Positions 49,558 through 64,000 are shown, counted from the stretch's first letter. The stretch: DNA of 64,000 nucleotides from a virus (IMGVR_UViG_3300042349_000626); one strand, 5' to 3'. Notes: a model not told the origin generated them from the letters alone. Translations and numbers: made by a program.

Positions 49558-49722
49558 ATGACTCTCCCAAAACAACCAAATAGTAGTCTCAACAATGAAG
49601 AATGGAATGAGATGGTTGCCTTAAGGAACGCCATTCATGACCTTCCCCAGTCAGTTTCTCCAGAAAAAATGGAACAATTTACAGCGTATCTTGTGAGAAG
49701 CATCCGAGAAAATGGTGGGTGA
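49558..49722 (+). CDS. hypothetical protein (54 aa)
   Basis: Hand-translated. RBS AAGAGG lies within a CTGACACAAGAGG motif. Extended -10 TGTATAAT at 49519-49527. Confidence 0.3.
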   Translation: MTLPKQPNSSLNNEEWNEMVALRNAIHDLPQSVSPEKMEQFTAYLVRSIRENGG

Positions 49723-49734
49723 CAGTTGAGCAAG

Positions 49735-49776
49735 TGGCACAGGGGGCTTGACGCCCCCTTTGTTTTGCCCTATATT
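49735..49776 (+). promoter_or_regulatory. composite terminator/promoter: TGGCACA-GGGGGC-[TTGAC]-GCCCCC-TTTGTTTT; TTGACG(49748)-17-TATATT(49771)
   Basis: 6-bp GC stem with the -35 in the loop. Immediately after the stop of ORF 49558. Confidence 0.6.
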
Positions 49777-49801
49777 AAGTGAGTCAACAACAGAGGACCA
49801 C

Positions 49802-50514: not shown

Positions 50515-50664
50515 ATGAGCAAGCAACTTCTGATCTCCATGCTTCGTAAAGGCGCCAACGGTCAAGAAATTCTCAACATTCTTGACGTTATTGCCAGTGA
50601 TACTGTGACAGAAGACAACAGCGAATCTTTCGCTGCTCCTACCCTCGACGAAATTTCTTTCTGA
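50515..50664 (+). CDS. hypothetical protein (49 aa)
   Basis: Hand-translated. Confidence 0.3.
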   Translation: MSKQLLISMLRKGANGQEILNILDVIASDTVTEDNSESFAAPTLDEISF

Positions 50665-50666
50665 TT

Positions 50667-50951: not shown

Positions 50952-51213
50952 TCTTGACTTCCAACCCCATCCCACCTATGCTACTGATGGGGTTCAAGCA
51001 AAGCACATCTTTCCCAATGGTTATGGTGTGAGTGTGGTACGATTTCCTGGATCCTATGGTTATTCTCAGGATCTGTATGAAGTAGCAGTCATCAAAGGTA
51101 CGGTAGATGACTTTGAACTGTGCTATGATACTCCCATCACTGAGGATGTTCTTGGTCATCGTGATGAGCAAGATGTAGAAATCATTATGGAAGAGGTTGC
51201 TGCTTTGACATGA
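50938..51213 (+). CDS. hypothetical protein (start at internal ATG 50938)
   Basis: ORF, ATGA-coupled to the next gene. Confidence 0.4.
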   Translation: MKFTDLDFQPHPTYATDGVQAKHIFPNGYGVSVVRFPGSYGYSQDLYEVAVIKGTVDDFELCYDTPITEDVLGHRDEQDVEIIMEEVAALT

Positions 51214-51371
51214 TTGCTCGTATTCTTGGTACTGGAGCAGGTGTATTTCTCATCCTGCTGATTCTATTGTCGAGGGGCATTCCAGTATTATTCTTTATGA
51301 AGATGCTGCCCCTCGTTCTTCTTCTTATCGTAGCAGCAGCGTTAATCTACGCGGGTGTTACTTCTGACTAA
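51210..51371 (+). CDS. small two-TM membrane protein (53 aa) directly upstream of the SPFH gene; possible NfeD-like partner
   Basis: Hand-translated MIARILGTGAGVFLILLILLSRGIPVLFFMKMLPLVLLLIVAAALIYAGVTSD. Confidence 0.4.
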   Translation: MIARILGTGAGVFLILLILLSRGIPVLFFMKMLPLVLLLIVAAALIYAGVTSD

Positions 51372-51398
51372 TTCTTGTTCTTTACTCCCTAACTAACT

Positions 51399-52217: not shown

Positions 52218-52219
52218 TT

Positions 52220-52387
52220 ATGATTGAACTCCTCGCCAGTGCTCTTATTGCTTCCAGCAATCAATCCGAGCAAATTAACAAATTCTGTGCTTATGTAGTG
52301 GGTATCCCATATGCTAGTGATAACTTCACTGACGAGGAATGGGAAAGGTTTAAATACTGTAGAGAACGATTAGGATATGATAACTAA
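52220..52387 (+). CDS. hypothetical protein (55 aa)
   Basis: Hand-translated, starts 3 nt after the SPFH stop. Confidence 0.3.
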   Translation: MIELLASALIASSNQSEQINKFCAYVVGIPYASDNFTDEEWERFKYCRERLGYDN

Positions 52388-52586
52388 AGATGGATATGCT
52401 ACGGTCCCCTGGGGGGACCGTTTTGTTTTAATACACAATGGCTTTCAGCTCAGTGATCACAAGACAGATGAGCAAGCAATTGAAGCACTCAAGAAACATA
52501 GGGAGAAAAACAAACCGAAGCCACCCAAACGTGCCAGTAAGAAAACTGGCACACGCTCCAAGTCAAAGGGTAAAATTGACTTATAA
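52377..52586 (+). CDS. small protein with basic K-rich tail
   Basis: 69-aa ORF. Confidence 0.35.
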   Translation: MITKDGYATVPWGDRFVLIHNGFQLSDHKTDEQAIEALKKHREKNKPKPPKRASKKTGTRSKSKGKIDL

Positions 52587-52781
52587 TACATGTAGTTGAG
52601 GAACCACTATGTACAACGTCACAGAAAATCAAGTCAATGAAGCAGTTGAACTTGTATTCGACACACTTCAATTAGAACCTAATTTGGCAAGCGATTTTCA
52701 TAGATTACTTGTTGATTGGTTGGATGTCAATAATGTAGAAATTATCGAATAAAAATAAATAGTTGGAAATGGTAGCATAAA

Positions 52782-54404
52782 ATGTCAGCAACTACTTCCA
52801 TAGAAAGTTTACAGTGCTTCGCATTTGCTTATTATGCTATAAATCCAACTATTACTAATGTTCACCAACAAAATTGGTATGATATATTTGATATAACACA
52901 ATTATCTCAACAAGAAATAAAAAACAAATCTAATTTATTGAGATCTACATATGGCAATCATTTGAGTTCAACGTTTAGTTCAAACATATTTGAAAATGTA
53001 TTGAACCAATATGGAAGCACATTAACAGCTACAGGAAAAGTTAGCATTAGTGAATATGTTAAGAAAGTATATCTTGTTGCCAAGAAAGTTGCTGCCACTT
53101 CTTTATTAGATAAGTGGTCACAATACGTGTTTCTTGATCAATCAGATTCTTTCACTACACTGGTTAAAAATACTGCTTTACAAAGAATCGCTTCAGCATT
53201 TGATATGCTAGGCAAAGATGATTTACTTTCCCCAGTAGATATGTTTGCCGTAAAGAAAACTAAAATTACTACAATTCTTACTGATTTCAACAAGCATATA
53301 ATTAATGCTACCGATGAACAATTGCTAGCAAATACTATTTGGGGTAAAACTGGCAAGAATACATATAGAACTTTATCAAACAAGTATTTCAAATCAAAAT
53401 CTATGATTGGAATATCATTGAAATTACCTGAAGCGATTACTGGATCAGGAATAATAAAAATTGTTGGTACTGAAAATGTTGATTCATCTCTTCTTGGTTT
53501 TGTAGATCCATATACAAAATTGATTGCTGCTATGTTAGCACATCCAACACAAACAAAAAAATTAATTGAGGACGTTATTGATATTGAATTTGATAATTTT
53601 AGAATAACACCTGATTTATTATCATGGGAGTACCCCATTACGTTTAGATATAAAGATGTTGTAGATCCCAGAACAGGATTAGAATTACACAAACAAAATC
53701 TTCGATTTAAATTGATGACATGGAGCAGTCAAGGATTTAATGCTTCGTGGTATAAAGGACAAGAAGCACCAGGAAATTGGACTGGTGGAGCCACAACTAT
53801 TCCTATTGGCGAACTATTTGTTAGATACAATGAATATTCTGGAATTTTAAATGAATTGGTTAAATTAAGAAGAGCAGCATTTTTCTATGCTATTCATGGA
53901 TCTACTAAAGATCCCTCATCAATAATACCTAAAAATTTGAAGTCTGAATATGAGAAGGCATTAAATGATGTGGAAAAGAAAATGATACTCACATCAGACA
54001 AAAGAGCCAACGTGGGCGAAGCAAAGAATTTGATAACGTTTTTGGAGGCATATTCTCCATCTTCCAACAAATATCATGTTTATCAGGAACATCTCATATT
54101 AAGTACAACAAGACCTATGAGAAATTCATCTAGGATTGTAACTAAAGATCCTAAGAGATTGAATGCTCACTACATTGCTTGTCAATGTGCTTGGTTTTTG
54201 TTTAGAGGTGGTCCTTCAATGCACAAATATCTCAAACAAAGAATGTTCTTATCATTGTTTGGTTTAATTACTAAGAGTGGATACAAAATCTTTCAAGGTA
54301 ATGAGAACACTGTTATGGAAGATTACCTCCAGAAATCATTCAAGAAAAACAAGAAGAATTTTGTAGCATACTTCAATGCTGCTCCCCACATCGTATTGTC
54401 ATAG
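52782..54404 (+). CDS. 540-aa hypothetical protein, strongly AT-rich relative to its neighbours (candidate moron)
   Basis: Long clean ORF. I recognise no motifs. Confidence 0.55.
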   Translation: MSATTSIESLQCFAFAYYAINPTITNVHQQNWYDIFDITQLSQQEIKNKSNLLRSTYGNHLSSTFSSNIFENVLNQYGSTLTATGKVSISEYVKKVYLVAKKVAATSLLDKWSQYVFLDQSDSFTTLVKNTALQRIASAFDMLGKDDLLSPVDMFAVKKTKITTILTDFNKHIINATDEQLLANTIWGKTGKNTYRTLSNKYFKSKSMIGISLKLPEAITGSGIIKIVGTENVDSSLLGFVDPYTKLIAAMLAHPTQTKKLIEDVIDIEFDNFRITPDLLSWEYPITFRYKDVVDPRTGLELHKQNLRFKLMTWSSQGFNASWYKGQEAPGNWTGGATTIPIGELFVRYNEYSGILNELVKLRRAAFFYAIHGSTKDPSSIIPKNLKSEYEKALNDVEKKMILTSDKRANVGEAKNLITFLEAYSPSSNKYHVYQEHLILSTTRPMRNSSRIVTKDPKRLNAHYIACQCAWFLFRGGPSMHKYLKQRMFLSLFGLITKSGYKIFQGNENTVMEDYLQKSFKKNKKNFVAYFNAAPHIVLS

Positions 54405-54416
54405 ACACCACACAAA

Positions 54417-54457
54417 CCGTCACGGGGGCTTGACCAGCCCCTTTTTCATGCTATGAT
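54417..54457 (+). promoter_or_regulatory. composite terminator/promoter (degenerate TGGCACA): GGGGC-[TTGACCA]-GCCCC-T5; TTGACC(54430)-16-TATGAT(54452)
   Basis: Hairpin plus U-run followed by a good -10. Just after the stop of ORF 52782. Confidence 0.5.
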
Positions 54458-54482
54458 ACGAGGGTAGTCAAGGGAGACCCCC

Positions 54483-54674
54483 ATGAGCACCACCACTAAG
54501 AAGCCCTATCCCCTGGGCATTGACAACCCCATGATCATTCGTGCTAGGATTGGTACGAGCAAGTGGGAGATCATTGATCGTGAGACTCGCCACTGCCTTG
54601 GTGTCTACCCCAATGAGTTTACTGCCTACGATGCTCGACGTGCCATGCTACGTTACGCTGGTTACGATGCCTGA
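54483..54674 (+). CDS. hypothetical protein
   Basis: 63-aa ORF with AGGGAG RBS. Confidence 0.45.
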   Translation: MSTTTKKPYPLGIDNPMIIRARIGTSKWEIIDRETRHCLGVYPNEFTAYDARRAMLRYAGYDA

Positions 54675-54768
54675 GCACAGTGGGACAGTTCTGAAAGTGG
54701 CACACTGACCACCACAGATCCGTCCCACACACCCTATAATTACAGAGTAATCAACGGAGCACCTTCCC

Positions 54769-55173
54769 ATGAACACCACACTCACCGCTGAGAAAATCGA
54801 AGATTACGCTGTGATGCTGTGTGATGCCCTCTACATGAACCTGAAGAATCAGCAGATTCGCTCTCACCAGCGTTCGATTCGTGAAGAAATCAACATGGAT
54901 TACCATGCTCAAAAGATCGAAGAAATCAAAAATCATGGTCCCAGTGTCGAATTCTATTTTCGTCGTGGTCGTAAGTATCTGAAACTGATCATGAAGGATT
55001 CTGGTGGACAGCAACATGTTCATGCTTTCATTGATCGTAACAACGGTGAAGTATTCAAACCAGCATCATGGTCTGGTCCAGCAAAAGATGTACGTTTCAA
55101 TTTGACACTGGAGCAATCCCGTGAGTGGTTGTATGAACATGCTGATTGGGCAGGAGGTTATCTGTACAAATGA
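54769..55173 (+). CDS. hypothetical protein
   Basis: 134-aa ORF. Confidence 0.45.
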   Translation: MNTTLTAEKIEDYAVMLCDALYMNLKNQQIRSHQRSIREEINMDYHAQKIEEIKNHGPSVEFYFRRGRKYLKLIMKDSGGQQHVHAFIDRNNGEVFKPASWSGPAKDVRFNLTLEQSREWLYEHADWAGGYLYK

Positions 55174-55316
55174 AAACAACTTACGCTTTTTTGGCAGTTG
55201 TAGCCATTCTCGGCTACAACGCCTTTCTCATCAAACGTGACACCCAATTGTTCAAAGCATATGATACAATATGCCAAGAACAACCACACCACCCAAATTG
55301 TAAGTATTCCAAATGA
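55170..55316 (+). CDS. small membrane protein (48 aa)
   Basis: Hand-translated, ATGA-coupled. Confidence 0.3.
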   Translation: MKTTYAFLAVVAILGYNAFLIKRDTQLFKAYDTICQEQPHHPNCKYSK

Positions 55317-55416
55317 TTGAAGAAGAAACACCAATTGATGATCTGTTCATGATGGCACTCGAAGAGAAGGCTGCGGAACTTGAAATCACTGTTGATTACT
55401 ACATTGCTGAGTTTTT

Positions 55417-55674
55417 ATGATTCGAGTATCCGTTAGAGATCTTACACATTGTCCTGAATGCGGAACTAATTGGGTTACTTCCGCAATACCTGAGGAACGG
55501 CGAGAGCATTACTCTTGGCCATACTTCTTTTCCCGTATTAATGCTTGTTACAATATAGAAACAGATCGTACAGAATACTATCAATGTCCTGATTGTAAAC
55601 ATACATTCCCACGATTTGGTCCTGATGTCAAGACATACGAGGTTGACAAAACCGAGTATGCTACATATACTTGA
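55417..55674 (+). CDS. zinc-ribbon protein (CPEC...CPDC)
   Basis: Two CxxC pairs. Confidence 0.45.
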   Translation: MIRVSVRDLTHCPECGTNWVTSAIPEERREHYSWPYFFSRINACYNIETDRTEYYQCPDCKHTFPRFGPDVKTYEVDKTEYATYT

Positions 55675-55695
55675 TTAGTTTTTTACTTACTCCAT

Positions 55696-55848
55696 ATGAC
55701 TGTTAGCATCGAACAAGCAAACGCTATCATCAAAGAACTTCGTGAAGTAAACAGTGCTCTTCAGAAAGAAAATGAGTTTCTTCGTGATGAGCTTGAAGAA
55801 TTGAAGTTCGAACTGTCCTGTGAAATAGACAAAGAGTATGATGTCTGA
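55696..55848 (+). CDS. small coiled-coil protein (50 aa)
   Basis: Hand-translated. Confidence 0.3.
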   Translation: MTVSIEQANAIIKELREVNSALQKENEFLRDELEELKFELSCEIDKEYDV

Positions 55849-56101
55849 TCTTATTATTGACTTTGATAATCATCTCAAGCATGGTCATGTATATCTTGTA
55901 GAAGTTGCTTTGCCATTACAAGATGCTCCCGAAGATGTACCCAATTGTATCACTGCTGATGTGTATGTGATAGCAAATAATTCACATCAAGCATTGTATA
56001 TTGTTAATTCTATGTACCCTGATAATGATGGAGCAACTACAGGAGAAGAACCAATTACAGAGTACGAGTATGCTGCCCGTAGGAACAGAAGTGTATTATA
56101 A
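55838..56101 (+). CDS. hypothetical protein
   Basis: 87-aa ORF. Confidence 0.4.
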   Translation: MMSDLIIDFDNHLKHGHVYLVEVALPLQDAPEDVPNCITADVYVIANNSHQALYIVNSMYPDNDGATTGEEPITEYEYAARRNRSVL

Positions 56102-56427
56102 TAACATGTATGGTCATGTACGATTTGTATGTGAGAAATATATGACCATCTGTGTTAAAGAATTTCCAACAGAACCAGTACGGGATGTATGTTTGATCGT
56201 GTATCCCGACAGATATGATAAAGTTGAACTTGTAAGAGGAAACCATTCACACGAATTATGACTTATTTTTCTGATTTTGAACATGTGGATTACCTGGATG
56301 ATTACAACGCCAGGCAGAATATCCTACAGGATATAGAAAATGTCTATTTGAAGGACACTATCGAAACTGTCCCAAATGACTTATTAGATGAGTTTGATTT
56401 CTGTAACATCAACTGAACACATCAACA

Positions 56428-56715
56428 ATGAGCAAGTTTCAATCGACTGTCTCCACAGTAGCAGCATTGGCTAGTATTTTTGCTGCTGGTGCTGCTGGAT
56501 ATAAACTGGCACAGAATCAGCCAGAATACAAACCAGAAGAACCACAGCCTGCCATTGAACAGAAATTAACTCAATTGGAGCAGAAGCTAGAAGAAAAGCT
56601 CACCACACCCCTCCAGCAGCCCCAGCAGCAGGCTCCTGTTGTACCACAGCTGCCACCCACGCCACAAGTGCCCCCAGCTCCTCCAGAGTCCCCTACACAA
56701 GAGGTAACACCATGA
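56428..56715 (+). CDS. TM/signal peptide plus Pro/Gln-rich protein
   Basis: N-terminal hydrophobic segment, then a PQ-rich tail. Confidence 0.4.
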   Translation: MSKFQSTVSTVAALASIFAAGAAGYKLAQNQPEYKPEEPQPAIEQKLTQLEQKLEEKLTTPLQQPQQQAPVVPQLPPTPQVPPAPPESPTQEVTP

Positions 56716-56972
56716 AAATGAGAATTATTCGAAGGCCATCGTTAACAAACAATCCTGATATTCACTGGTATCATGCTCAAGTACGACGATTTGGTATTTG
56801 GGTAGAATGTCGTGATGATTTGTTCATGATGTTGAAGTATACGAGTGAGATGATGTCACAATCACATGATACTAGTCTCGAACGTGTGGAGCGTTTCGTA
56901 GAATATGCCATGAGGAAGGAAGATATGTTCCCTAAATCAAAGAACATTGTCCTCAAAGAGTATGAAACCTGA
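56712..56972 (+). CDS. hypothetical protein
   Basis: ORF, ATGA-coupled. Confidence 0.4.
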   Translation: MKMRIIRRPSLTNNPDIHWYHAQVRRFGIWVECRDDLFMMLKYTSEMMSQSHDTSLERVERFVEYAMRKEDMFPKSKNIVLKEYET

Positions 56973-57183
56973 TGTAAAAGCAAGAATCATATCATCTATT
57001 CTTGTAATCACAGCGTATTACATTACCATGTACCATGACACTGTAACAGGTGCCAAGTTATACATGGTAGCCAATGCCCTAGCACTTCCGTATATGATAC
57101 GGAATAAGTGTTGGGATGTTGTGGCTCTACTCTCTTTCCTGATCCTTGTGGGTCTCCCCAAGGTGTTGACATCCACCAACTGA
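56947..57183 (+). CDS. small membrane protein
   Basis: Hydrophobic ORF. Confidence 0.35.
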   Translation: MSSKSMKPDVKARIISSILVITAYYITMYHDTVTGAKLYMVANALALPYMIRNKCWDVVALLSFLILVGLPKVLTSTN

Positions 57184-57217
57184 TCTGCTACACTGTTCTC
57201 ATACATCACTGAAAATC

Positions 57218-57439
57218 ATGGAACACGACGAAATGTACTTTGTAATCGAAGGCAAAGCCATCACACTCGATGAGATGGGTGCCGCTGTAATCTGTAATGT
57301 CAACCAAGATGGTCAAGTTGACTGGGATTCTTTTGATCTGATTGATTGGATGGATCTCTCTCCTGATCAGTATCAATTGTACAAAGCAGTCGTTGACTTT
57401 CTTCAACAGCACACTCCTCACCCCATGTATGTCAAATGA
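57218..57439 (+). CDS. hypothetical protein, acidic
   Basis: ORF. Confidence 0.4.
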   Translation: MEHDEMYFVIEGKAITLDEMGAAVICNVNQDGQVDWDSFDLIDWMDLSPDQYQLYKAVVDFLQQHTPHPMYVK

Positions 57440-57672
57440 ACATAGTAGCAGATCACGTCAGGGAACTTGCCGAGTTAGTTCCTGTAACTCAAACTGAATA
57501 CCAACCAATTCCAAAACAATCTCTCACACCAAAAGAACAGCAACTGTTCTGGAGGTATCATGGACATTTCCCAAATGACTTCGCCCGTGGAATAGCAGAA
57601 TGTCTTCCTGAAAACTGTAAGTTTGTAACTTACGATCATCTGTCAAATAGAGTTACGGTGGAGGTAGTATGA
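57436..57672 (+). CDS. hypothetical protein
   Basis: ORF, ATGA-coupled. Confidence 0.4.
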   Translation: MNIVADHVRELAELVPVTQTEYQPIPKQSLTPKEQQLFWRYHGHFPNDFARGIAECLPENCKFVTYDHLSNRVTVEVV

Positions 57673-57914
57673 CACCAGATCAAGAACAACGACAACAAGA
57701 AAGAGAGTATGAGTCTGTGTCTGAGCAATCAGACCAGATTTTATTATACATGCAAGATCGCTTTCAAGAATTGATGTCTGAGAATCGTATGGATGATGCC
57801 ATTGCCTTAGGTGATGAGTATATCGAATGGATTGGTCAGTATCCTGATGAAGTGTTCTTGTATTACAATGAGAAAGAACTGAAACAGGATTACAAGGAAA
57901 GAAAACGTAAATGA
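57669..57914 (+). CDS. hypothetical protein
   Basis: ORF. Confidence 0.4.
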   Translation: MTPDQEQRQQEREYESVSEQSDQILLYMQDRFQELMSENRMDDAIALGDEYIEWIGQYPDEVFLYYNEKELKQDYKERKRK

Positions 57915-58489
57915 TACACACATTCACCCCAGAGTTTTTCTTTTATCATTCCATACCAAATCACCAACAACACAAGGAGATTATTCTTCCTAAACTAGAG
58001 AAGGATAAAGATCGTGCTTTTCGTGCTACTGCTAATGGTACATGTATTACTACTAGTACACTGAGTAACTTTGATTTGTTTCATGAAGAGTTTGTACGAG
58101 AAGTGATCTGGAATCCATTTAATCAAATGTTAAGTGAGTTTGATATTCATTTGAATAAGATTAAATTGACGAATTCAAAGGTGAATGCTGTGTGGTGGAA
58201 TTACTACGAACCAAATGAAATCTGTCATCCACATAGGCATTATCAATCAGATTTCACAGGAATCTATCTTCTACATCTAGAAGAACCCAATCCAACAAGA
58301 TTTCTACCAACGAATAATTCGTCAAATACTTATCCATTGTTCGATGGTATTGTATTGTCTGAACAATGTAAAGAAGGAGATGTATTAATCTTTCCAGGTA
58401 AGATTCTACATTGGACTGTACCTATCTCAACACCACGTTGGATTGTTGCTTTTGACATTAATGTGGGCAGCTATCACAAGAGTATTTGA
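57911..58489 (+). CDS. hypothetical protein; weak resemblance to cupin/2OG-Fe(II) oxygenase (HPHRH...H)
   Basis: 192-aa ORF; the His cluster is only suggestive. Confidence 0.35.
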   Translation: MIHTFTPEFFFYHSIPNHQQHKEIILPKLEKDKDRAFRATANGTCITTSTLSNFDLFHEEFVREVIWNPFNQMLSEFDIHLNKIKLTNSKVNAVWWNYYEPNEICHPHRHYQSDFTGIYLLHLEEPNPTRFLPTNNSSNTYPLFDGIVLSEQCKEGDVLIFPGKILHWTVPISTPRWIVAFDINVGSYHKSI

Positions 58490-58761
58490 TTGTGCCACTG
58501 ATTCAACTGGCACACACCACTCACCAACACCACTCAGCAGCCCCTACAATAAGCACAGTTCAAACAACTCACATGAACACCACTGTCACCATCACTCTCA
58601 CTCCTGAGCAGCGTACAGCTCTTGCTGATGCTCTTTATATTCGAGCAATGGATCTTCAAGCCAACGTTCATGGAACAGATCGTAATGTGGCAATGAATGA
58701 AGTTGCTGCTTGTTTGCTCGATCAAATGGATTATCCTGTACATGAATGGATGAATGTATGA
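58486..58761 (+). CDS. hypothetical protein
   Basis: ORF. Confidence 0.35.
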   Translation: MIVPLIQLAHTTHQHHSAAPTISTVQTTHMNTTVTITLTPEQRTALADALYIRAMDLQANVHGTDRNVAMNEVAACLLDQMDYPVHEWMNV

Positions 58762-59261
58762 TCAAAGCAGCAGTATTTTGTGGTAAAATCATTCCTGGTT
58801 ACTATGTTTCCACCGATGGACGTGTATTCACTACTAGAATCAGAATCAGAAACAAAGGAAAGATTACTCGGTTTGACAACACAGGACCAATGGTAGAAAT
58901 GATACAAACAAGATGGAATAAAAAACAAGATTACCTATCTGTTCGCCTAGCAATACCATATGGATTATTACCCAATGATGAACACTACCAAAAGAAAAGA
59001 AAAAATTTAAATTGTACAACATATCAACGTAGAGTATATGTTCATAGGTTAGTAATGGAAACATATAAACCAATAGAAAAGTATCCACCTGATAGATTGA
59101 AAACACATTGGAAAGAATTACCATCACCAGTCAAAGAGATTATAAGTGAAATGATCTATGTTAATCATATGGATCATGTACAAACAAATAATCATGTAAG
59201 TAATCTTGAATGGGTAACACCACAAGAAAACTCTATTAGGGCAGCTACTTTCCGCAGGTAG
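58746..59261 (+). CDS. HNH homing endonuclease, second copy, AT-rich island
   Basis: YYVSTDGRVFT...VHRLV...VNHMDHVQTNNHVSNLEWVTPQEN is a classic phage HNH homing-endonuclease signature. Confidence 0.75.
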   Translation: MDECMIKAAVFCGKIIPGYYVSTDGRVFTTRIRIRNKGKITRFDNTGPMVEMIQTRWNKKQDYLSVRLAIPYGLLPNDEHYQKKRKNLNCTTYQRRVYVHRLVMETYKPIEKYPPDRLKTHWKELPSPVKEIISEMIYVNHMDHVQTNNHVSNLEWVTPQENSIRAATFRR

Positions 59262-59302
59262 AGTATCCAGTGTATGACTGAGATGTTCTCAATGATACCT
59301 TT

Positions 59303-59343
59303 GAGTTTTCCACATACCTGTGGAAAAACCTGTGGAAAACTAG
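59303..59343. repeat. hairpin repeat copy 1 (AGTTTTCCACA-N4-CCTGTGGAAAA..CTAG)
   Basis: Inverted repeat TTTTCCACA/TGTGGAAAA. Direct repeat of 59553-59587. Confidence 0.5.
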
Positions 59344-59552
59344 TATATTAATAAATGTTTAAAAAAACATAGTTGAGTGTTTTGAATTGCTCACATAAGC
59401 TTTCGTTAATTGTTGCTGAAAGCATGGAAATGTACGGAGGTGTTGTTGTCTAAGCCCGCCACCACTCGAAAGTCAAGGATTTATGTGCCAGTTCTCCAAG
59501 TGTCACACAGGGGCTTGACAAATAGTTCTATATATGCTTCGAGCACCTCCAA

Positions 59553-59587
59553 GATAGTTTTCCACAACCCTGTGGAAAAACTCCTAG
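59553..59587. repeat. hairpin repeat copy 2
   Basis: Same 30-35 bp unit. The two copies flank about 210 bp of structured non-coding sequence. Confidence 0.5.
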
Positions 59588-59600
59588 CCACTTCGAGGAC

Positions 59601-59641
59601 TGGCACAGGGGGTTGACAAGCCCAGAAAAACCTGCTACACT
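59601..59641 (+). promoter_or_regulatory. sigma70-like promoter TGGCACA-G5-TTGACA(59613)-17-TACACT(59636), no hairpin
   Basis: Exact spacing. Shares AAAACCTGCTACA with the tRNA-cluster promoter. Confidence 0.55.
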
Positions 59642-59656
59642 GTATTCATGAAGTTC

Positions 59657-59733
59657 GGAAATCTCAAAAATCGAGAAATCCCAAAAATCCAAAAAACTCA
59701 AAAACTTGAAATTTAAGGTTTTTGAGATTTTCC
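59657..59733. repeat. A-tract iterons (AAATCTCAAAAA x3-4 at ~10-11 bp phasing) bracketed by the imperfect inverted repeat GGAAATCTCAAAAA / TTTTTGAGATTTTCC
   Basis: Seen directly. A similar array lies at 61125-61190. Confidence 0.45.
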
Positions 59734-59764
59734 AAAAACTTCAAAGTTAAACTTTAACATTTAA

Positions 59765-60001
59765 TTGATGAACATGAAAACCATTAACAACATTGATTCT
59801 ACTGCTATTAACACTGTAACACAAGATAGTGATAACCTTGTTACTATTACATTTAACAGTGGTAAGAGCTATAATTACCGTGATACCACTGGTAATTTTG
59901 TAAATACCGTTGAGAATGCTGTAGAAAACAACCAAAGTGTTGGTCGTTTGTTCAATCGAGCACTAAAAGAAGATCAAACTCTTCAACTAGTCACTGTTTG
60001 A
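59765..60001 (+). CDS. hypothetical protein, AT-rich
   Basis: 78-aa ORF. Confidence 0.4.
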   Translation: MMNMKTINNIDSTAINTVTQDSDNLVTITFNSGKSYNYRDTTGNFVNTVENAVENNQSVGRLFNRALKEDQTLQLVTV

Positions 60002-60050
60002 ACAATAAATAACCCAAATACCACAACAACTGGAGTAAATTGAGTTAAAA

Positions 60051-60209
60051 ATGGCAAAAACAAGTCGTAAGTACACAGATCCCGTTAAAGATCTGCCCCT
60101 TGAAGATGACTACGAGAATTTTGGATACGATATCCAAAACGCTAAACGTTATTCCACAAGGAACAAACGCCAGACCAAATTCAAGGACTACGATGATTAT
60201 GGTGAGTGA
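60051..60209 (+). CDS. small basic/acidic protein (52 aa)
   Basis: Hand-translated. Confidence 0.3.
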   Translation: MAKTSRKYTDPVKDLPLEDDYENFGYDIQNAKRYSTRNKRQTKFKDYDDYGE

Positions 60210-60221
60210 ATAAAATATTTC

Positions 60222-60250
60222 AAGGGGGGCATTAGCCCCTCTTTTTTTAT
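60222..60250 (+). terminator. intrinsic terminator (GGGGGGC-ATTA-GCCCCTC then T7)
   Basis: 7-bp GC stem plus U-run after ORF 60051. Confidence 0.6.
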
Positions 60251-60410
60251 ACACATCCACAAGGGCATTCATAGCACGTTTAGGTGCCCCTGCCTCTATG
60301 ACACTGTGACACTTCGGCAAGTGGCATAGAGGGGCTTCCAGGGGGCTCTCAGGGGTGCCATACTATGTTCATCGGGGGAACACCCCGACCCACACTACTC
60401 AAAGGATCAA

Positions 60411-60590
60411 ATGACCTCTCAGCAACTGCTCCAGACCGCTCGTAACGTGCTCACCGCCACTTCGAGCGACACTGGTCGTCCTGCCCTTCGGAAGGCTGCC
60501 ATGGCAGCTGGTCGTACCCAACAGCAGGTGGACAAGGCTAGCACCATGCGTCTGGCACTGTGGAGCCGTGGCTTTAAGTCCGCCATCTGA
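60411..60590 (+). CDS. small GC-rich hypothetical protein (59 aa)
   Basis: Hand-translated; AAGGA RBS. The track shows only minus-strand shadows here. Confidence 0.4.
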   Translation: MTSQQLLQTARNVLTATSSDTGRPALRKAAMAAGRTQQQVDKASTMRLALWSRGFKSAI

Positions 60591-60592
60591 AC

Positions 60593-60634
60593 TGGCACAA
60601 GGGGGTTGACACCAGCCCCCACCCATGTTATTCT
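60593..60634 (+). promoter_or_regulatory. composite element: TGGCACA-AGGGGG-TTGACA(60606) in a GGGGG/CCCCC hairpin -17- TATTCT(60629)
   Basis: Just after the stop of ORF 60411. Confidence 0.5.
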
Positions 60635-60657
60635 TGATCTGTACCTGAGAAATCCAA

Positions 60658-60825
60658 ATGGATTACTTCAACACCAACATCGTTGCCCGTCATGAAGACA
60701 CCACCATGCTGAATGCTTGGATGGTTGAACACTTCAACTTCGTGCTTTCTATGCCTTGGTTGACTGATGCTGAGATTGACATGTATGAAGATGAGAAAGC
60801 AATGTACCTTTGTTACGATGTATGA
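60658..60825 (+). CDS. hypothetical protein (55 aa)
   Basis: Hand-translated. Confidence 0.3.
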   Translation: MDYFNTNIVARHEDTTMLNAWMVEHFNFVLSMPWLTDAEIDMYEDEKAMYLCYDV

Positions 60826-60910
60826 TGGTTGACACTTACAACTTTACTGGTGACGCTGTGACAGTTCTAGGACTGGTCGGTGTCATCTCCACTGGCATCA
60901 TCCTGGTGCT

Positions 60911-61123
60911 ATGCTTCACTCGTTACTACAACTCACCCCTTCGGAAATGATGGATCGTCAAGTTCTTCAAGAACAACTTGTTCAACAAATGTTGGATGAC
61001 ATGGATCTTAAAACAGTGATGTCATTGTGTTATGACTATCTTCAAGAGGGTTATGATAAGTATAGTGATGAAGAATTGAAGGAAGAGGTAGAACAGTATT
61101 ATCCTGAAATTTTAGAAAACTAA
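60911..61123 (+). CDS. hypothetical acidic protein
   Basis: 70-aa ORF. Confidence 0.4.
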   Translation: MLHSLLQLTPSEMMDRQVLQEQLVQQMLDDMDLKTVMSLCYDYLQEGYDKYSDEELKEEVEQYYPEILEN

Positions 61124-61140
61124 AAAATCTAAAAATCTCA

Positions 61141-61190
61141 AAAACTGAGAAATCTAAAAAACTCAAAAGTTAAGATTTCTCAGTTTTTTT
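61141..61190 (+). terminator. long AU-rich hairpin (15-bp stem AAAACTGAGAAATCT/AGATTTCTCAGTTTT, 17-nt loop) ending in a T-run; sits in the second A-tract array
   Basis: Perfect inverted repeat 18 nt after the stop of ORF 60911. Confidence 0.45.
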
Positions 61191-61325
61191 AACATTAAAC
61201 TTTAATCTTTAATCTTATGTCTAATATATTAACCTTTCAAGATTATATAAAGAATGAATTAGAAGAACAAGATATAAAGAATAAAGAATACGAATACGAT
61301 GACTATAGTATAACTACAGATATAG

Positions 61326-61382
61326 ATTATACTACTCAAGAGTAGTATATTATACCCTCTAGACCACAATCTAGAGGGTATT
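61326..61382. other. two tandem perfect hairpins (ATATACTACTC/GAGTAGTATAT and ACCCTCTAGA/TCTAGAGGGT), the second followed by TTTTAGTGTTT
   Basis: Seen directly. Could be a bidirectional terminator or a structured RNA. Confidence 0.45.
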
Positions 61383-61433
61383 TTAGTGTTTGTCAAGGGG
61401 TGCTGTGCCACTTTCTGAACTGTCCACTCCCCC

Positions 61434-61462
61434 TTGACACCGCTGGTTGTTGTTGCTATGCT
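61434..61462 (+). promoter_or_regulatory. sigma70-like promoter TTGACA(61434)-17-TATGCT(61457). A divergent TGGCACA-GCACCCC-TTGACA element lies on the minus strand at 61391-61410
   Basis: Plus-strand promoter before gene 61519. A second TATACT..CAACCCACCA leader sits at 61482-61500. Confidence 0.45.
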
Positions 61463-61518
61463 TGGTGTGTGGTTGAGAGAAGTATACTCAACCCACCAAT
61501 CAATTCTTAACAACAACC

Positions 61519-61758
61519 ATGAACAACGAGTTTGTGAAGTCTTTCGTGTCCACCCTGATGTATAATCTAGCAACGGTGGTTGCTATCATCGTGGGTGTGG
61601 CACTGTTTGTTGCTAACCGTGCCCAGCAGTGGTACAACTCAGGCGGGCGAGAAACCCTCCTAAAGTATACTCAACGTGTGCTGCTGTTTGTGAGTTCTAC
61701 CACAGAAAAAGCCTACTATTGGGCATGTGATGTGACAGAATCTGAACTGGCACACTAA
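61519..61758 (+). CDS. small membrane protein
   Basis: 79-aa ORF with an N-terminal TM helix. Its last codons encode the TGGCACA motif. Confidence 0.45.
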   Translation: MNNEFVKSFVSTLMYNLATVVAIIVGVALFVANRAQQWYNSGGRETLLKYTQRVLLFVSSTTEKAYYWACDVTESELAH

Positions 61759-61803
61759 CACCCCCAGGGGGGCATCGTGCCCCCTATACTGAACAAGTCA
61801 ACA
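61747..61803 (+). promoter_or_regulatory. composite element plus conserved leader: TGGCACA-GGGGGCA/TGCCCCC hairpin-TATACT(61785)-GAACAAGTCAAC
   Basis: Copy 1 of the 20-mer CTATACTGAACAAGTCAAC(C). Confidence 0.5.
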
Positions 61804-61813
61804 CAATTCTATT

Positions 61814-62005
61814 ATGTTTGACCTCGCTTTTGTCACTCCTAAATCTAAAAAAGCAAAGAACAGATTTGCTAACCTGATGAACAGCAACCCAGAGTGTATT
61901 GTGGAACAAATTAAAGAGAACCGTGTGTTCCTTCGTTCTCACAATGGGAAGAACTTCTTCTGGGTTGCTGTCAAGAATGACCCAGACTGGAGTGTAGACT
62001 TCTGA
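61814..62005 (+). CDS. hypothetical protein
   Basis: 63-aa ORF 24 nt after the -10. Confidence 0.4.
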   Translation: MFDLAFVTPKSKKAKNRFANLMNSNPECIVEQIKENRVFLRSHNGKNFFWVAVKNDPDWSVDF

Positions 62006-62010
62006 CCCTG

Positions 62011-62081
62011 TGCCAGTTGGGGCACTGTCCACCAACACCAGCAGGGGGCACCACCAGCCCCCTATACTGAACAAGTCAACC
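62011..62081 (+). promoter_or_regulatory. composite element plus leader: inverted TGTGCCA, GGGGGC/GCCCCC hairpin, TATACT(62063), leader copy 2
   Basis: 20-mer CTATACTGAACAAGTCAACC at 62062-62081. Confidence 0.5.
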
Positions 62082-62096
62082 AAACGACACCCGATC

Positions 62097-62825
62097 ATGC
62101 TTCACTTCTCCCACGGCAACGCTAAGCTTGGCAAGGGCACAGTGATTTTCAACCTGCCTGCTGGCAGCACCTGCCCAGGTGCTCTCCAGTGCTTCTCCAT
62201 GGCGGTTGCTGATGCTAACGGCAAGCGTTCGATTGTTGACGGTCAACACACCCAATTCCGCTGCTTTGCTGCTTCTTCTGAGGTTCAGTATGACGCTGTT
62301 TATGCCAACCGCCAGCACAACTTTAAAACAATTGTTGAAGCTCTCAAGTCTGGCAATTGTGCTGATTTTATTAACACCGAACTCCAGAAAGCACGCAAAA
62401 AGAATACTAAACTCGTCCGAATTCATGAGTCTGGTGACTTCTTCTCTGCCGCCTATCTGCTCTCGTGGATGCTTGTTGCTCAGGCAAATCCTGATCTGAA
62501 GTTCTACTGCTACAGCAAGAATCTGCCACTGTTTGTTGGTTTGGTGTTGCCCTCTAACTTCTACTTCACTGCCTCCTATGGTGGTAAGTTCGACTATCTC
62601 ATCGATGAGGGCAAGTTTACACGCTACGCCAAGGTGTTCATGACCGAAGCTGATGCTAACGCTGCTGGTCTTAAGTTAGATTCACAGGATCAGTCTTGCT
62701 TTGAGGAAGGTCCCTTCGCTCTGCTGGTTCACGGCACCCAACCCAAGGGCAGCGAGTGGGGCAAAGCAGCGAGGGCAAACCGTAAGATCCAGAAGGCTAA
62801 AGTCAAGCAGCCTCAGCCAGTCTGA
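62097..62825 (+). CDS. hypothetical Cys-rich protein (true start ATG 62097)
   Basis: 242-aa ORF, GC-rich. CPGALQC motif. Confidence 0.5.
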   Translation: MLHFSHGNAKLGKGTVIFNLPAGSTCPGALQCFSMAVADANGKRSIVDGQHTQFRCFAASSEVQYDAVYANRQHNFKTIVEALKSGNCADFINTELQKARKKNTKLVRIHESGDFFSAAYLLSWMLVAQANPDLKFYCYSKNLPLFVGLVLPSNFYFTASYGGKFDYLIDEGKFTRYAKVFMTEADANAAGLKLDSQDQSCFEEGPFALLVHGTQPKGSEWGKAARANRKIQKAKVKQPQPV

Positions 62826-62829
62826 CAAG

Positions 62830-62886
62830 TGGCACACAGGGGGCAGCAATGCCCCCACCCCACCCCCTATACTGAACAAGTCAACC
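62830..62886 (+). promoter_or_regulatory. composite element plus leader copy 3: TGGCACA-GGGGGCA/TGCCCCC hairpin-TATACT(62868)-GAACAAGTCAACC
   Basis: Seen directly; starts 5 nt after the stop of ORF 62097. Confidence 0.5.
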
Positions 62887-62897
62887 ACAGGCACCCC

Positions 62898-63167
62898 ATG
62901 ACCTACGCCTTCACCGACACCGTACAGATCGATGAGCAGTGGGAGATCCCCACCAACCTCGACGCCGTTCTCTCTAAGGTGGACGAAATCCTGGAGAATC
63001 GGTATTGCATCTGGGGAGAATTCACCACCAGTGGTGACAACGAGTGGGCAACAGATCTGGCGATCCAAGGTATCCTGGAGGGCAAGAATCCTTCGGAGAT
63101 TGCTGATACAATCGCCAGTGAGTATGACCCCACCCCCGACATCATGCCTATCGGGGAGATGTTCTGA
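62898..63167 (+). CDS. hypothetical acidic protein
   Basis: 89-aa ORF (ATG 62898). Confidence 0.45.
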   Translation: MTYAFTDTVQIDEQWEIPTNLDAVLSKVDEILENRYCIWGEFTTSGDNEWATDLAIQGILEGKNPSEIADTIASEYDPTPDIMPIGEMF

Positions 63168-63169
63168 AA

Positions 63170-63230
63170 TGTTACAGGGGCATCCACAGGGGTGCCCCTC
63201 CCCATGCTAGAATTCCAGAGTCAACCACAC
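63170..63230 (+). promoter_or_regulatory. variant element: AGGGGCA/TGCCCCT hairpin-GCTAGAAT-CCAGAGTCAACCACAC leader
   Basis: Same layout with -10-like TAGAAT and an AGTCAACCACA leader. Confidence 0.4.
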
Positions 63231-63238
63231 AGCCACCG

Positions 63239-63400
63239 ATGAGAATCGAAGTCCGCTACCAGACCCCCTACAACCACACCGAGTGGCGGTCTCAGTGGTT
63301 CCCCACCCTGGAGGAGGCACAGCGTATGGTAGAATTCTACCTGAGCTGTGGATCACCCTCCCACATCGCCCCCAGCAGCCTCGCCCAGTTCGACCGATGA
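63239..63400 (+). CDS. hypothetical protein (53 aa)
   Basis: Hand-translated, GC-rich. Confidence 0.3.
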   Translation: MRIEVRYQTPYNHTEWRSQWFPTLEEAQRMVEFYLSCGSPSHIAPSSLAQFDR

Positions 63401-63567
63401 TCAACCGCCTCTCTGCCGCCATCCTCGCCACCGCTGCTCTGGGCATCACGGTGGGGCTGCCGCTGTTCTCCTGCCTCAGGGATAGTAAGGCACTCCAGAG
63501 CACCGCCCCCCTGTGCCACCCCACAGAGCGGCTGAGCGACTGCCTGGATCAGCTGCCCACCGTCTAG
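63397..63567 (+). CDS. small membrane/secreted protein (56 aa)
   Basis: ATGA-coupled; hydrophobic N-terminus. Confidence 0.35.
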   Translation: MINRLSAAILATAALGITVGLPLFSCLRDSKALQSTAPLCHPTERLSDCLDQLPTV

Positions 63568-63593
63568 ACTGAATCACGACGACACCCACCCCC

Positions 63594-63770
63594 ATGATCA
63601 AGACCATCGCTCTGCTCTGCCTCGGTGCTGCCTTCTACGCCCCCATCGCTGCTGTAGGATCTGCTGCTGTGGGGTTCGCTGCCGACACCGTGAGCAGCCT
63701 CAACGCCGCCACCGCTGCCCGTTGTGACACCTACAATTCTGTCCTCCCTGGTGCTTGCCAGATGCCTTGA
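63594..63770 (+). CDS. small protein with signal-peptide-like N-terminus (58 aa)
   Basis: Hand-translated MIKTIALLCLGAAFYAPIAA... Confidence 0.35.
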   Translation: MIKTIALLCLGAAFYAPIAAVGSAAVGFAADTVSSLNAATAARCDTYNSVLPGACQMP

Positions 63771-63796
63771 GAGGCTCTATACTGAACAAGTCAACC
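63755..63796 (+). promoter_or_regulatory. TTGCCA(63755)-17-TATACT(63778) plus leader copy 4 (CTATACTGAACAAGTCAACC)
   Basis: Seen directly; the -35 lies inside the end of the upstream ORF. Confidence 0.5.
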
Positions 63797-63811
63797 ACAG
63801 ACACCCGACCG

Positions 63812-63985
63812 ATGTTCATCACCAACGAAGCTGCCCGTAACGACCTCGCCTGCCAGATGGCGATGGCATCCTACATGAAGCAGCTCCAGGCAGAGGAGCA
63901 ACGCCGCCAGGAGATCCGCCAGGGTCTCCGCCCCGCCCCCACCTGGAGCGAGGGTGGCACCTGGAACATCTCCGACCGCCACTGA
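63812..63985 (+). CDS. hypothetical protein (57 aa)
   Basis: ORF 29 nt after the -10. Confidence 0.4.
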   Translation: MFITNEAARNDLACQMAMASYMKQLQAEEQRRQEIRQGLRPAPTWSEGGTWNISDRH

Positions 63986-64000
63986 TCCACACGGGGGCAC

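Follow-up and report, generated by a model that had tools for sequence, protein, structure and literature searches.

In 2016, Doron et al. reportedly described an early-gene regulatory element in the T4-like cyanophages Syn9 and P-TIM40; this element is said not to be a canonical sigma70 promoter, and to be both frequent and conserved in the genomes of cyanophages and in metagenomes. In cyanobacteria, NtcA-type '-10 only' promoters are activator-dependent and carry GTA-N8-TAC centred at -41.5. Promoter-early stem-loops (PeSLs) have been described in the T4-type phages RB49/phi1, T4/PST and KVP40/nt-1 (Arbiol et al. 2010, PMC2839356; Comeau et al. 2014, PMC4122927). These two papers do not mention cyanophages, and a study of S-PM2 judged PeSL-mediated exchange to be unlikely there (PMC4503421).

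We looked at a stretch of viral DNA of 64,000 nucleotides, hereafter the window. Its tail-collar and fibre proteins match those of Synechococcus and Prochlorococcus myoviruses and, by its sequence, the window is that of a T4-like cyanomyovirus (Kyanoviridae). An earlier note on this DNA had pointed to a 20-mer repeated four times upstream of small genes, and had proposed that it could be a shared start-site or translation signal, a binding site for a phage regulator, or the footprint of recombination or homing. We found that the 20-mer is the best-conserved part of an intergenic module of about 90 nt, in which a palindromic box is followed by a spacer of about 31 nt that usually folds into a hairpin with G/C runs, then by TATACT, 5 nt, AGTCAACC, a leader and the ATG. 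The 20-mer is very likely the core, that is the -10 region and the start site, of a host-polymerase promoter for cyanomyovirus early genes. Most likely, this core is a known kind of element that would also mark the sites at which the phage gains and loses gene cassettes. The module may correspond, by its box, its core or both, to the early element attributed to Doron et al., an assignment that rests on the reported features of that element and on the presence of the module in Syn9.

Syn9 shares the phage family and carries the same architecture (box, about 30 nt, TATTCT, CATACT or TATACT, 5 nt, AGTCAAA, a short leader and the ATG) in front of gp55, gp63, gp68, gp75, gp78 and gp79, in its 43-52 kb region. 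The reported abundance of the early element in genomes and metagenomes also agrees with the spread of the module observed here. The cores differ, being TATACT-GAACA-AGTCAACC in the window and TATTCT-ATAAG-AGTCAAAG in Syn9, and the Syn9-type core was detected in 96 cyanomyovirus records. Among the isolates of the phage collection, the window-type core was matched only in S-SRM01, as one exact copy; in this phage, too, the module precedes small genes. A search of related phages, as the earlier note had suggested, gave exact 20-mers in 18 viral contigs in addition to S-SRM01, while the degenerate pattern CTATACTNANCAAGTCAACC, with two positions free, was present in more than 120 metagenome contigs, where the module again lies ahead of small genes. 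The exact 20-mer had no match in 185,579 cellular genomes (species genomes), and the degenerate form had two, neither of them cyanobacterial, where about 17 were expected by chance according to a hand estimate. A copied host promoter or host repeat was rejected on these counts. The modules resemble NtcA-type promoters in having a TAnnnT -10, no -35 and an upstream palindrome at a fixed distance, but this palindrome is GTGNCA-N10-TGNCAC near -54 rather than GTA-N8-TAC at -41.5, and no cellular genome has the exact 20-mer.

The likeness to PeSLs is one of organization. Both are intergenic composites of about 100 nt that combine an early promoter (a putative one in the modules) with a polyG/polyC stem-loop lying between an upstream element and the -10, both are densely repeated among orphan genes of variable regions and reach to the start codon of the following gene, and in both cases the indels that separate close relatives have the elements as their borders and leave a single chimeric element behind. 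PeSLs, however, have -35 and -10 hexamers close to the consensus, with a Shine-Dalgarno sequence at their 3' end, whereas in the modules the -35 is missing from three of the four copies and there is no Shine-Dalgarno sequence; the modules also have the palindromic box further upstream and a conserved start-site block. The PeSL stem-loop terminates transcription and PeSL recombination gives mini-circles.

Four copies of a composite module

The 20-mer CTATACTGAACAAGTCAACC was found in four copies in the window, all on the + strand, three of them exact and one with one mismatch, which bears out the four-fold repeat. It was matched in none of 100 dinucleotide-preserving shuffles, even with three mismatches allowed. 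The GC-rich block is real as well, with 56.7% GC in 62001-64000 against 32-45% elsewhere in the window. The block starts with a box followed by a sigma70-like promoter (61405..61462, +; GTGCCA..TGTCCAC, then TTGACA-17-TATGCT), directly preceded by a canonical terminator at 61352-61381.

All features of the modules described below lie on the + strand. In module 1, the box (61732..61753, GTGACAgaatctgaacTGGCAC) overlaps the last codons of the ORF 61519-61758 and ends 31 nt before the -10. The hairpin (61767..61785, GGGGGGCA-tcg-TGCCCCCT) occupies the interval between the box and the -10, and the 66-nt segment folds with -22.6 kcal/mol (z -2.4). The 20-mer follows at 61784-61803, its one mismatch being the last base, A, with TATACT at 61785-61790, AGTCAAC at 61796-61802 and a predicted start at the A or G of 61796/61797. 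The gene (61814..62005, 63 aa) belongs to phrog_1653. Module 2 consists of a box (62010..62032, GTGCCAgttggggcacTGTCCAC), a hairpin (62043..62063, GGGGGCA-ccaccag-CCCCCT region), an exact 20-mer (62062-62081) and a gene of 242 aa (62097..62825) that matches Pfam PF17338 GP88 (E 3.8e-42). In module 3, the box (62814..62835, CAGCCAgtctgacaagTGGCAC) has a degenerate left half, and is followed by a hairpin (62839..62856, GGGGGCA-gcaa-TGCCCCC), an exact 20-mer (62867-62886) and a gene of 89 aa (62898..63167) with no family match. In module 4, the box, read from the sequence (63724..63746, GTGACAcctacaattcTGTCCTC), lies within the end of the ORF 63594-63770; the 20-mer (63777-63796) is exact and is the sole copy with a -35-like hexamer (TTGCCA at 63755, 17-nt spacer), and the gene (63812..63985, 57 aa) belongs to phrog_14769.

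Counted from the final T of TATACT, the four ATGs (61814, 62097, 62898 and 63812) follow at 24, 29, 25 and 29 nt, in line with the 24-29 nt given in the earlier note, and 10-15 nt after the 3' end of the 20-mer. None of the four leaders (caattctatt, aaacgacacccgatc, acaggcacccc and acagacacccgaccg) contains a GGAG, GAGG or AGGA run, so that these genes do lack a Shine-Dalgarno sequence, as had been claimed. The three variants quoted at the same time are all present: AGTCAACCACAC starts at 63219, GAGTCAACAACAG at 49781 and TATACTCAACCCACCA at 61483. The first belongs to a variant module (63180..63238) made of a hairpin, TAGAAT (63208-63213), 5 nt, AGTCAACC (63219-63226) and a leader, upstream of two genes (63239-63400 and 63397-63567). 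The second belongs to a module outside the GC-rich block (49719..49801), with a box at 49719-49740, TTGACG in the hairpin loop, TATATT at 49771-49776, AGTCAAC at 49782-49788 and an ATG at 49802. The looser pattern TANNNT-N5-AGTCAA was found six times in the window for 1.5 expected.

A segmental duplication was rejected as the origin of the copies, and with it the larger recent duplication that the earlier note had weighed against a motif: the repeated unit reaches at most 30-44 nt, identity drops outside the 20-mer, and the four downstream genes are unrelated to one another. Altogether, the modules precede at least 147 different genes, counted as distinct N-termini over 236 modules. Those of the window are small orphans located in a variable region, which fits early expression without proving it.

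The predicted -10 region and start-site block, and the leader

Related loci were gathered using the motif itself, so that the module frequencies given here are biased upward; the scans of Syn9 and of the cellular genomes are the unbiased controls. In 244 of 263 unique modules, a TAnnnT was located exactly 5 nt before AGTCAA. Among these, TATACT was the most frequent hexamer (161), followed by TAGAAT, TAGGAT, TATTCT, TAGACT, TACAAT, TATAAT and others. The -10-type TAnnnT reads TATACT in 4/4 copies of the window, and TAGAAT, TACAAT, TATTCT or TATAAT at the same position in paralogous modules. Contrarily to the rigid spacing of 5 nt, the distance from AGTCAA to the ATG ranged from 17 to 26 nt, with a mode of 19-20 nt (236 modules). 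Since the 5 nt to the -10 are rigid while the ATG distance floats, the element appears tied to the transcription start and is not placed as a ribosome-binding site would be. Among the readings of the earlier note, a shared start site is thus the best supported.

In the promoter reading, TATACT would be recognized as the -10 hexamer by host RNA polymerase carrying the primary sigma factor; the next five bases would be the discriminator, and AGTCAACC would cover the predicted start (A or G of AGTC) together with the beginning of the mRNA. The resulting leader would be about 20 nt long, C/A-rich, unstructured and without a Shine-Dalgarno sequence, and the module would serve small, mostly orphan genes of variable regions. 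Neither a -35 hexamer (TTGACA-like, 16-18 nt from the -10) nor a TG extended -10 was found in copies 1-3, so that such a promoter would have to rely on an activator, or on a start region that is exceptionally favourable. A TTGACA -35 is present, at 17 nt, in some related modules of the window.

We wanted to weigh this against a role in the RNA, in which AGTCAACC and the C/A leader of about 20 nt would act mainly as a 5' signal for translation independent of a Shine-Dalgarno sequence, or for protection, the promoter needing only TATACT. In favour of such a signal, AGTCAAC(C) is kept downstream of the -10 while hexamer and discriminator vary, and the block is common to promoter classes with different upstream parts (GATAAG-type in L008, TTGACA-type) and to phages as distant as Syn9, where it reads AGTCAAA. 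The narrow leader is also 46% C and 36% A, is predicted by folding to be unstructured, and is Shine-Dalgarno-like in only 14/236 modules. However, a rigid distance to the -10 with a loose one to the ATG is the opposite of what a ribosome-positioning element would show, and other modules of the window have other start regions (AGTTCAA, AGTAATC and GGTACTC). In orthologous alignments upstream of the gp88-like gene, the 20-mer had a mean pairwise identity of 0.87 and the box one of 0.83, both higher than the coding sequence (0.70-0.78). The values were 0.59 in the hairpin spacer and 0.48 in the remainder of the leader, which makes this remainder the least conserved part of the module. A known structured RNA family was rejected, since no Rfam match was obtained at E up to 1 in 44000-64000. 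We consider a mainly RNA-borne role rather unlikely, and it is compatible with the promoter explanation, not exclusive of it.

A bolder form combines both, with an (A)GUCAACC 5' end and a C/A leader of about 20 nt without a Shine-Dalgarno sequence as a dedicated early-mRNA signal of the whole family, and a palindrome that recruits an activator to promoters without a -35. We give it a small chance. If it were true, the first phage mRNAs would be favoured in translation or protected during host takeover, by a route that depends on the 5' end or on a specific host or virion protein.

The upstream palindrome and the hairpin

The box has the consensus GTGNCA-N10-TGNCAC, with half-site centres 16 bp apart, and occurs 14 times in the window for 1.9 expected. 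Its end was 30-32 nt from the -10 in 94 of 106 cases, whether a hairpin was present or not, which places its centre about 54 bp upstream of the predicted start. The commonest pair of half-sites, GTGACA/TGGCAC (56/121), would mismatch as a stem, which suggests protein binding rather than RNA pairing; no covariation was found between the half-sites, and the box was rejected as an RNA stem. For the promoter reading, we infer that the box may bind a dimeric protein replacing the missing -35, but a centre near -54 is atypical for a classical activator position and counts against this substitution. As for the regulator site proposed in the earlier note, no support was obtained for the 20-mer itself, and the palindromic box, which that note does not mention, appears to be the better candidate. 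A sigma54-like reading of TGGCAC lacks the GC element 5 nt downstream, and the hosts of these cyanophages are not known to have sigma54.

The spacer folds with a mean energy of -11.2 kcal/mol, compared with -5.7 kcal/mol in shuffles; 71% of the modules have a hairpin at or below -8 kcal/mol and about 30% have none. A folding energy of -6 kcal/mol or lower was reached by 185 modules, of which 140 have distinct hairpin sequences. The hairpin may block or attenuate read-through from the upstream cassette, or protect the 3' end of the RNA of that cassette. Its role as a terminator is uncertain because no T-run follows the hairpins; 61000-64000 contains one canonical terminator (61352).

Probable cassette exchange, remaining alternatives and meaning

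Since the modules repeat along the genome, they could provide the homology through which recombination inserts, deletes or exchanges cassettes made of a module and its gene. Two indels relative to close relatives were found, and both have their junctions inside modules. The relative L012 (97-99% identity with the window) carries an additional cassette of 268 bp, made of a module and an ORF, at the site of a box/hairpin/TTGACA/TATTCT module of the window (60576..60640, +), flanked by the 15-nt direct repeat A(G/C)TGGCACAAGGGGG, which is composed of the proximal half of the box and the 5' arm of the hairpin. Compared with L059 and L011, an insertion of two genes separates a module of the window from the following gene; these are the genes of the variant module, which are missing at this point in both relatives. 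Gene-order comparison also showed that the gene content between modules varies among relatives. The L012 junction fits homologous recombination because it consists of a simple direct repeat of 15 nt located in the box and hairpin arm and not in the 20-mer, and these exchanges look like homologous recombination between promoter modules, not homing. Of the footprint that the earlier note had envisaged, recombination has support from these comparisons, and homing seems not to fit.

The same junctions and the varying cassette content could also be expected if the 20-mer had no function of its own and were kept alike by concerted evolution, through frequent gene conversion and recombination among the modules, or were left by mobile cassettes (homing, integron-like site-specific recombination, mini-circles, the latter being documented for PeSLs in RB49 and phi1; PMC2839356). 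Homogenization within genomes is hinted at because some genomes favour their own discriminator variant, with mostly T or A at position 8 in L016 and L004 and GATCA twice in L011. Yet the same sequence is found across contigs that are about 70-80% identical in coding sequence, before at least 147 genes, and variation is limited to the discriminator while the -10 and AGTCAACC are fixed, a pattern of a binding site and not of a drifting repeat. In addition, the L012 repeat lies outside the 20-mer, and no family of recombinases or endonucleases was matched by the eight proteins encoded in the 61.5-64 kb block, the remainder of the window being covered by sampling. A 20-mer without a sequence-specific function of its own, or left by mobile cassettes, is quite improbable.

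A promoter of a phage single-subunit RNA polymerase (T7, SP6 or Syn5 type), or a portion of a hairpin promoter such as the N4 virion polymerase uses, would account for a long, near-identical, strand-specific 20-mer just 5' of genes and adjoining a hairpin. The N4-like reading was considered because of an ORF of 3504 aa in the window, similar in size to the N4 virion polymerase. However, this ORF is surrounded by tail-fibre genes, matches nothing in Pfam but a phycobilisome-protein domain, and is flanked by genes for tail collar and fibre proteins as found in T4-like cyanophages; the Pfam and PHROG matches thus led to the rejection of the N4-like reading. In the five ORFs scanned, which include the three longest of a 64-kb window that is part of the genome, no polymerase Pfam match was obtained. 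Moreover, the paralogous hexamers vary within the TAnnnT of the sigma70 family, some with TTGACA at 17 nt, and about 30% of the modules do without a hairpin. No RNA polymerase of their own is known from T4-like phages, which rely on that of the host (PMC2988021). We regard a phage polymerase as highly improbable here.

Finally, there is next to no chance that the 20-mer is coding, as a shared N-terminal extension read from an upstream GTG or TTG: the ORFs 62010-62825, 62829-63167 and 63755-63985 do cross it in frame with the downstream ATG, but such frames stay open because C/A-rich sequence has few stop codons, the frame differs among copies (copies 2 and 4 read ILNKST, whereas copy 3 reads YTEQVN), and no 3-nt periodicity of the distance from AGTCAA to the ATG was found across 236 modules.

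The promoter reading of the 20-mer and its module leaves current views standing. The signature (box, 31 nt, TAnnnT, 5 nt, AGTCAA, a leader of about 20 nt, ATG) would mark transcription units and true start codons, and would be useful for the small orphan genes of cyanomyovirus genomes and metagenome contigs, which are hard to annotate because they lack a Shine-Dalgarno sequence. Cassette shuffling of the PeSL type, known in enterobacterial and vibrio phages, appears to be active in cyanomyoviruses with a different promoter design. The start block and the palindrome may provide handles on strong early transcription without a -35 and on the translation of early mRNAs without a Shine-Dalgarno sequence.

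The repeated 20-mer and its setting in the window

The earlier note had described a 20-mer, CTATACTGAACAAGTCAACC, repeated four times ahead of small genes, and our scan of the window confirmed this observation. The sequence occurs exactly at 62062, 62867 and 63777 and with one mismatch at 61784, all on the + strand, and no match appeared in 100 shuffles of the sequence even with three mismatches permitted. The variants quoted with it were also present (49781/49782, 61483 and 63219), and the looser pattern TANNNT-N5-AGTCAA was found six times in the window against 1.5 expected. As had been claimed, the ATGs at 61814, 62097, 62898 and 63812 lie 24-29 nt from the last T of TATACT, and none of the four leaders contains a Shine-Dalgarno run. 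When a -35 element and an extended -10 were looked for, neither was detected in three of the four copies, and no Rfam family matched the region. The repeated unit extends over only 30-44 nt, and the copies precede mutually unrelated orphan genes: one belongs to the GP88 family (PF17338; second copy, 62097-62825), two to PHROG families of unknown function, and the Pfam and PHROG searches gave no match for the others. A larger recent duplication, the alternative raised in the earlier note, is therefore ruled out by the short unit and the unrelated downstream genes.

The GC-rich block was also recovered, with 56.7% GC versus 32-45% elsewhere. This block of about 57% GC, in a phage of about 37% GC, starts just past a canonical terminator (61352-61381) made of a 12-bp stem and a T-run, after which a palindromic box and a TTGACA-17-TATGCT promoter are found at 61405-61462. 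An AT-rich, near-perfect inverted repeat (61323-61354; TAGATTATACTACTC / GAGTAGTATATTATA) with arms 2 nt apart immediately precedes the terminator, where AT-rich sequence gives way to GC-rich. The block resembles an insulated unit with a separate compositional origin.

We assign the window to a cyanomyovirus (Kyanoviridae-like) genome, because the best relatives of its tail proteins come from T4-like Synechococcus and Prochlorococcus myoviruses (Sf-FR1, 48%; Syn1; S-RIM44). No close isolate at the DNA level was found in the phage collection. These proteins (tail collar, fibre and assembly) are the neighbours of a 3504-aa ORF located among the tail-fibre genes (7658-18172, + strand), which had first suggested an N4-like phage; this identification was dropped in view of the Pfam match and the tail-gene neighbours. 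Pfam gave only one match for the ORF, PF00502 (phycobilisome protein), over aa 1279-1384 with E 4.7e-11; a domain of the light-harvesting type is unusual within a giant virion-associated protein.

Architecture of the modules

Modules were collected by scanning with the motif itself, their contexts were lined up, and 244 unique modules were measured. They follow a common plan: a palindromic box GTGNCA-N10-TGNCAC, a spacer that in most cases holds a hairpin made of G and C runs, a hexamer of -10 type, then precisely five bases, AGTCAAC(C), a C/A-rich leader and an ATG. Of the 263 modules with a hexamer within 4-7 nt, 244 have a gap of 5 nt between it and AGTCAA. Inside the TAnnnT pattern the hexamer is variable, TATACT being the most frequent (161), followed by TAGAAT, TAGGAT, TATTCT, TAGACT, TACAAT, TATAAT and others, and a canonical -35 is present in some modules. 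In 236 modules an open ATG lies 17-26 nt past the A of AGTCAA (mode 19-20 nt), with no three-base periodicity in this distance. The leaders consist of 46% C, 36% A, 12% G and 6% T; a Shine-Dalgarno-like run is present in only 14 of the 236, and 147 distinct N-terminal heptapeptides are encoded behind the modules.

The box, whose right half is frequently TGTCCAC, was counted 14 times in the window versus 1.9 expected, at 4907, 32011, 49719, 50246, 52531, 54682, 58492, 59485, 59585, 60576, 61405, 61732, 62010 and 62814. Every intergenic box there is followed at the same distance by a -10-like hexamer, and often, 4-6 nt after the box, by a TTGACA-type -35. Among the modules, the box ends 30-32 nt ahead of the hexamer in 94 of 106 cases, including modules that lack a hairpin (L008, a related viral contig). 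Since the commonest pair of half-sites, GTGACA with TGGCAC (56/121), would mismatch as a stem, the box appears to be an inverted repeat for protein binding rather than an RNA hairpin. If the G of AGTC is the transcription start, the centre of the box falls at about -54, a position unusual for a classical activator. The helicase gene carries a box-type promoter both in the window (32011-32040) and in phage Syn9 (~49050-49158), so the box is not restricted to orphan genes. Two boxes (61732-61753 and 63724-63746) overlap the final codons of the preceding ORFs, whose products end in, for example, CDVTESELAH and CDTYNSVLPGACQMP; chimeric protein ends would therefore result from recombination at the boxes.

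The 34 nt ahead of the hexamer fold with a mean of -11.2 kcal/mol versus -5.7 for shuffles, reaching -8 kcal/mol or lower in 71% of modules. In the window, hairpins are strong in the first three copies and weak in the fourth. Hairpin structure is conserved and hairpin sequence is not, with 140 distinct sequences among the 185 modules folding to -6 kcal/mol or lower. The hairpin is probably not an essential part of the promoter, because about 30% of the modules have none. No T-run follows the hairpins, which makes termination by them uncertain.

Alignments of orthologous regions ahead of the gp88-like gene indicate the parts on which selection would act. Mean pairwise identity was 0.87 for the 20-mer and 0.83 for the box, both understated because one of the aligned contigs has another type of promoter, and it was 0.78 for the upstream coding sequence, 0.70 for the downstream coding sequence, 0.59 for the hairpin spacer and 0.48 for the rest of the leader.

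Distribution among phages and apparent exchange of cassettes

The search of related phages proposed in the earlier note found the exact 20-mer in 18 viral contigs and in the cultured Synechococcus phage S-SRM01, which has one copy (match at genome 87236-87267). The CTATACTNANCAAGTCAACC pattern was present in more than 120 metagenome contigs among the matches listed. Across 185,579 species genomes of bacteria and archaea the exact 20-mer was absent, and the form degenerate at two positions gave only two matches, neither of them cyanobacterial.

Syn9 serves as an unbiased control, since it was not collected with the motif. Its small-gene region (43-52 kb) follows the same plan: upstream of gp55, gp63, gp68, gp75 (a helicase), gp78 and gp79 there is a box and, about 30 nt on, a hexamer (TATTCT, CATACT or TATACT) separated by five bases from a start block, with a short leader and the ATG behind it. 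The start block is AGTCAAA before gp63, gp68 and gp78 and a related AGTCCCA, AGTTTCA or ATCAAAC before gp55, gp75 and gp79; the predicted starts at the A or G of AGTCAAA lie at Syn9 46353, 48622 and 51064. The box is missing from the promoters of Syn9 replication genes, gp32 among them, which are of the ordinary TTGACN-17-TAnnnT kind. The Syn9-type core TATTCTATAAGAGTCAAAG recurs across 96 records of cyanomyoviruses, frequently with several copies in one genome. In L008 (- strand; starts at 11464, 10048, 9661 and 5855), a palindrome GATAAG-N7-CTTATC replaces the GTGNCA box, together with a hairpin bearing TTGACA in its loop, a TATTCT -10 and the same AGTCAACC start block; this arrangement suggests that a single core design is served by two or more upstream regulators.

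Comparison of relatives points to exchange at the modules. L012 is a contig 97-99% identical to window 59342-64000. At about 60590, where only one module is present in the window, it carries 268 bp more, made up of a module and a 63-aa ORF, and the insert is flanked by a direct repeat, A(G/C)TGGCACAAGGGGG, comprising the proximal box half and the 5' hairpin arm. In contig L059, a TAGAAT/AGTCAACC module leads directly into the MLKTLALL gene, and in contig L011 a CTATACTGATCAAGTCAACC module occupies the same point ahead of its homologue. Compared with both, the window has two genes (63239-63567) inserted after the TAGAAT module, and a degenerate core, TAGACTGAATCAC, remains before the displaced gene. 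Seven relatives share the flanking backbone and differ in the genes that lie between modules. Moreover, gp88-family orthologues (upstream loci L038 5323, L088 1496, L118 1066 and L103) stand behind three core promoters, namely the 20-mer type, TTAAGAT..AGTTCAC and TTGACG-17-TATTGT..AGTCACC; promoters and genes therefore reassort.

The modules resemble the PeSLs of RB49/phi1, T4/PST and KVP40/nt-1, composites of about 100 bp that join an early promoter to a polyG/polyC stem-loop, most often placed between -35 and -10, and that are repeated among orphan genes and act as recombination points (PMC2839356, PMC4122927). The L012 and L059/L011 comparisons show the same exchange behaviour. The PeSL papers make no mention of cyanophages (PMC2839356, PMC4122927), and a PeSL-type mechanism was judged unlikely in S-PM2 (PMC4503421); for these reasons the exchange evidence is a modest extension of PeSL-type behaviour.

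The module as a probable promoter

Altogether, the best reading of the 20-mer is that it comprises the -10, discriminator and transcription start region of a host-polymerase promoter. This reading draws on the TAnnnT variation, a pattern recognised by primary sigma factors, on the canonical -35s of some modules, on the rigid spacing to AGTCAA and floating spacing to the ATG, and on the use of host RNA polymerase for transcription by T4-like phages. The copies lacking both -35 and extended -10 would fit a promoter class relying on something else; the obvious candidate is the palindromic box, which sits at a fixed distance where an upstream element would lie. Among the readings offered in the earlier note, the start site thus fares best and cassette recombination is supported as well, and nothing favoured a phage-regulator site in the 20-mer. 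A role of AGTCAAC(C) and the leader at the mRNA 5' end is possible, because AGTCAAC(C) is kept across upstream promoter types and distant phages and the leader is short, unstructured and without Shine-Dalgarno.

Doron et al. reportedly described in 2016 a novel regulatory element driving Syn9 early genes and host-like promoters driving middle genes, these elements being said to be conserved and abundant both in metagenomes and in the genomes of T4-like cyanophages. The module matches this early-element description, and we infer that the two are equivalent. The 20-mer module would then be a lineage-specific version, with PeSL-like organisation, of a previously described promoter element of T4-like cyanophages.
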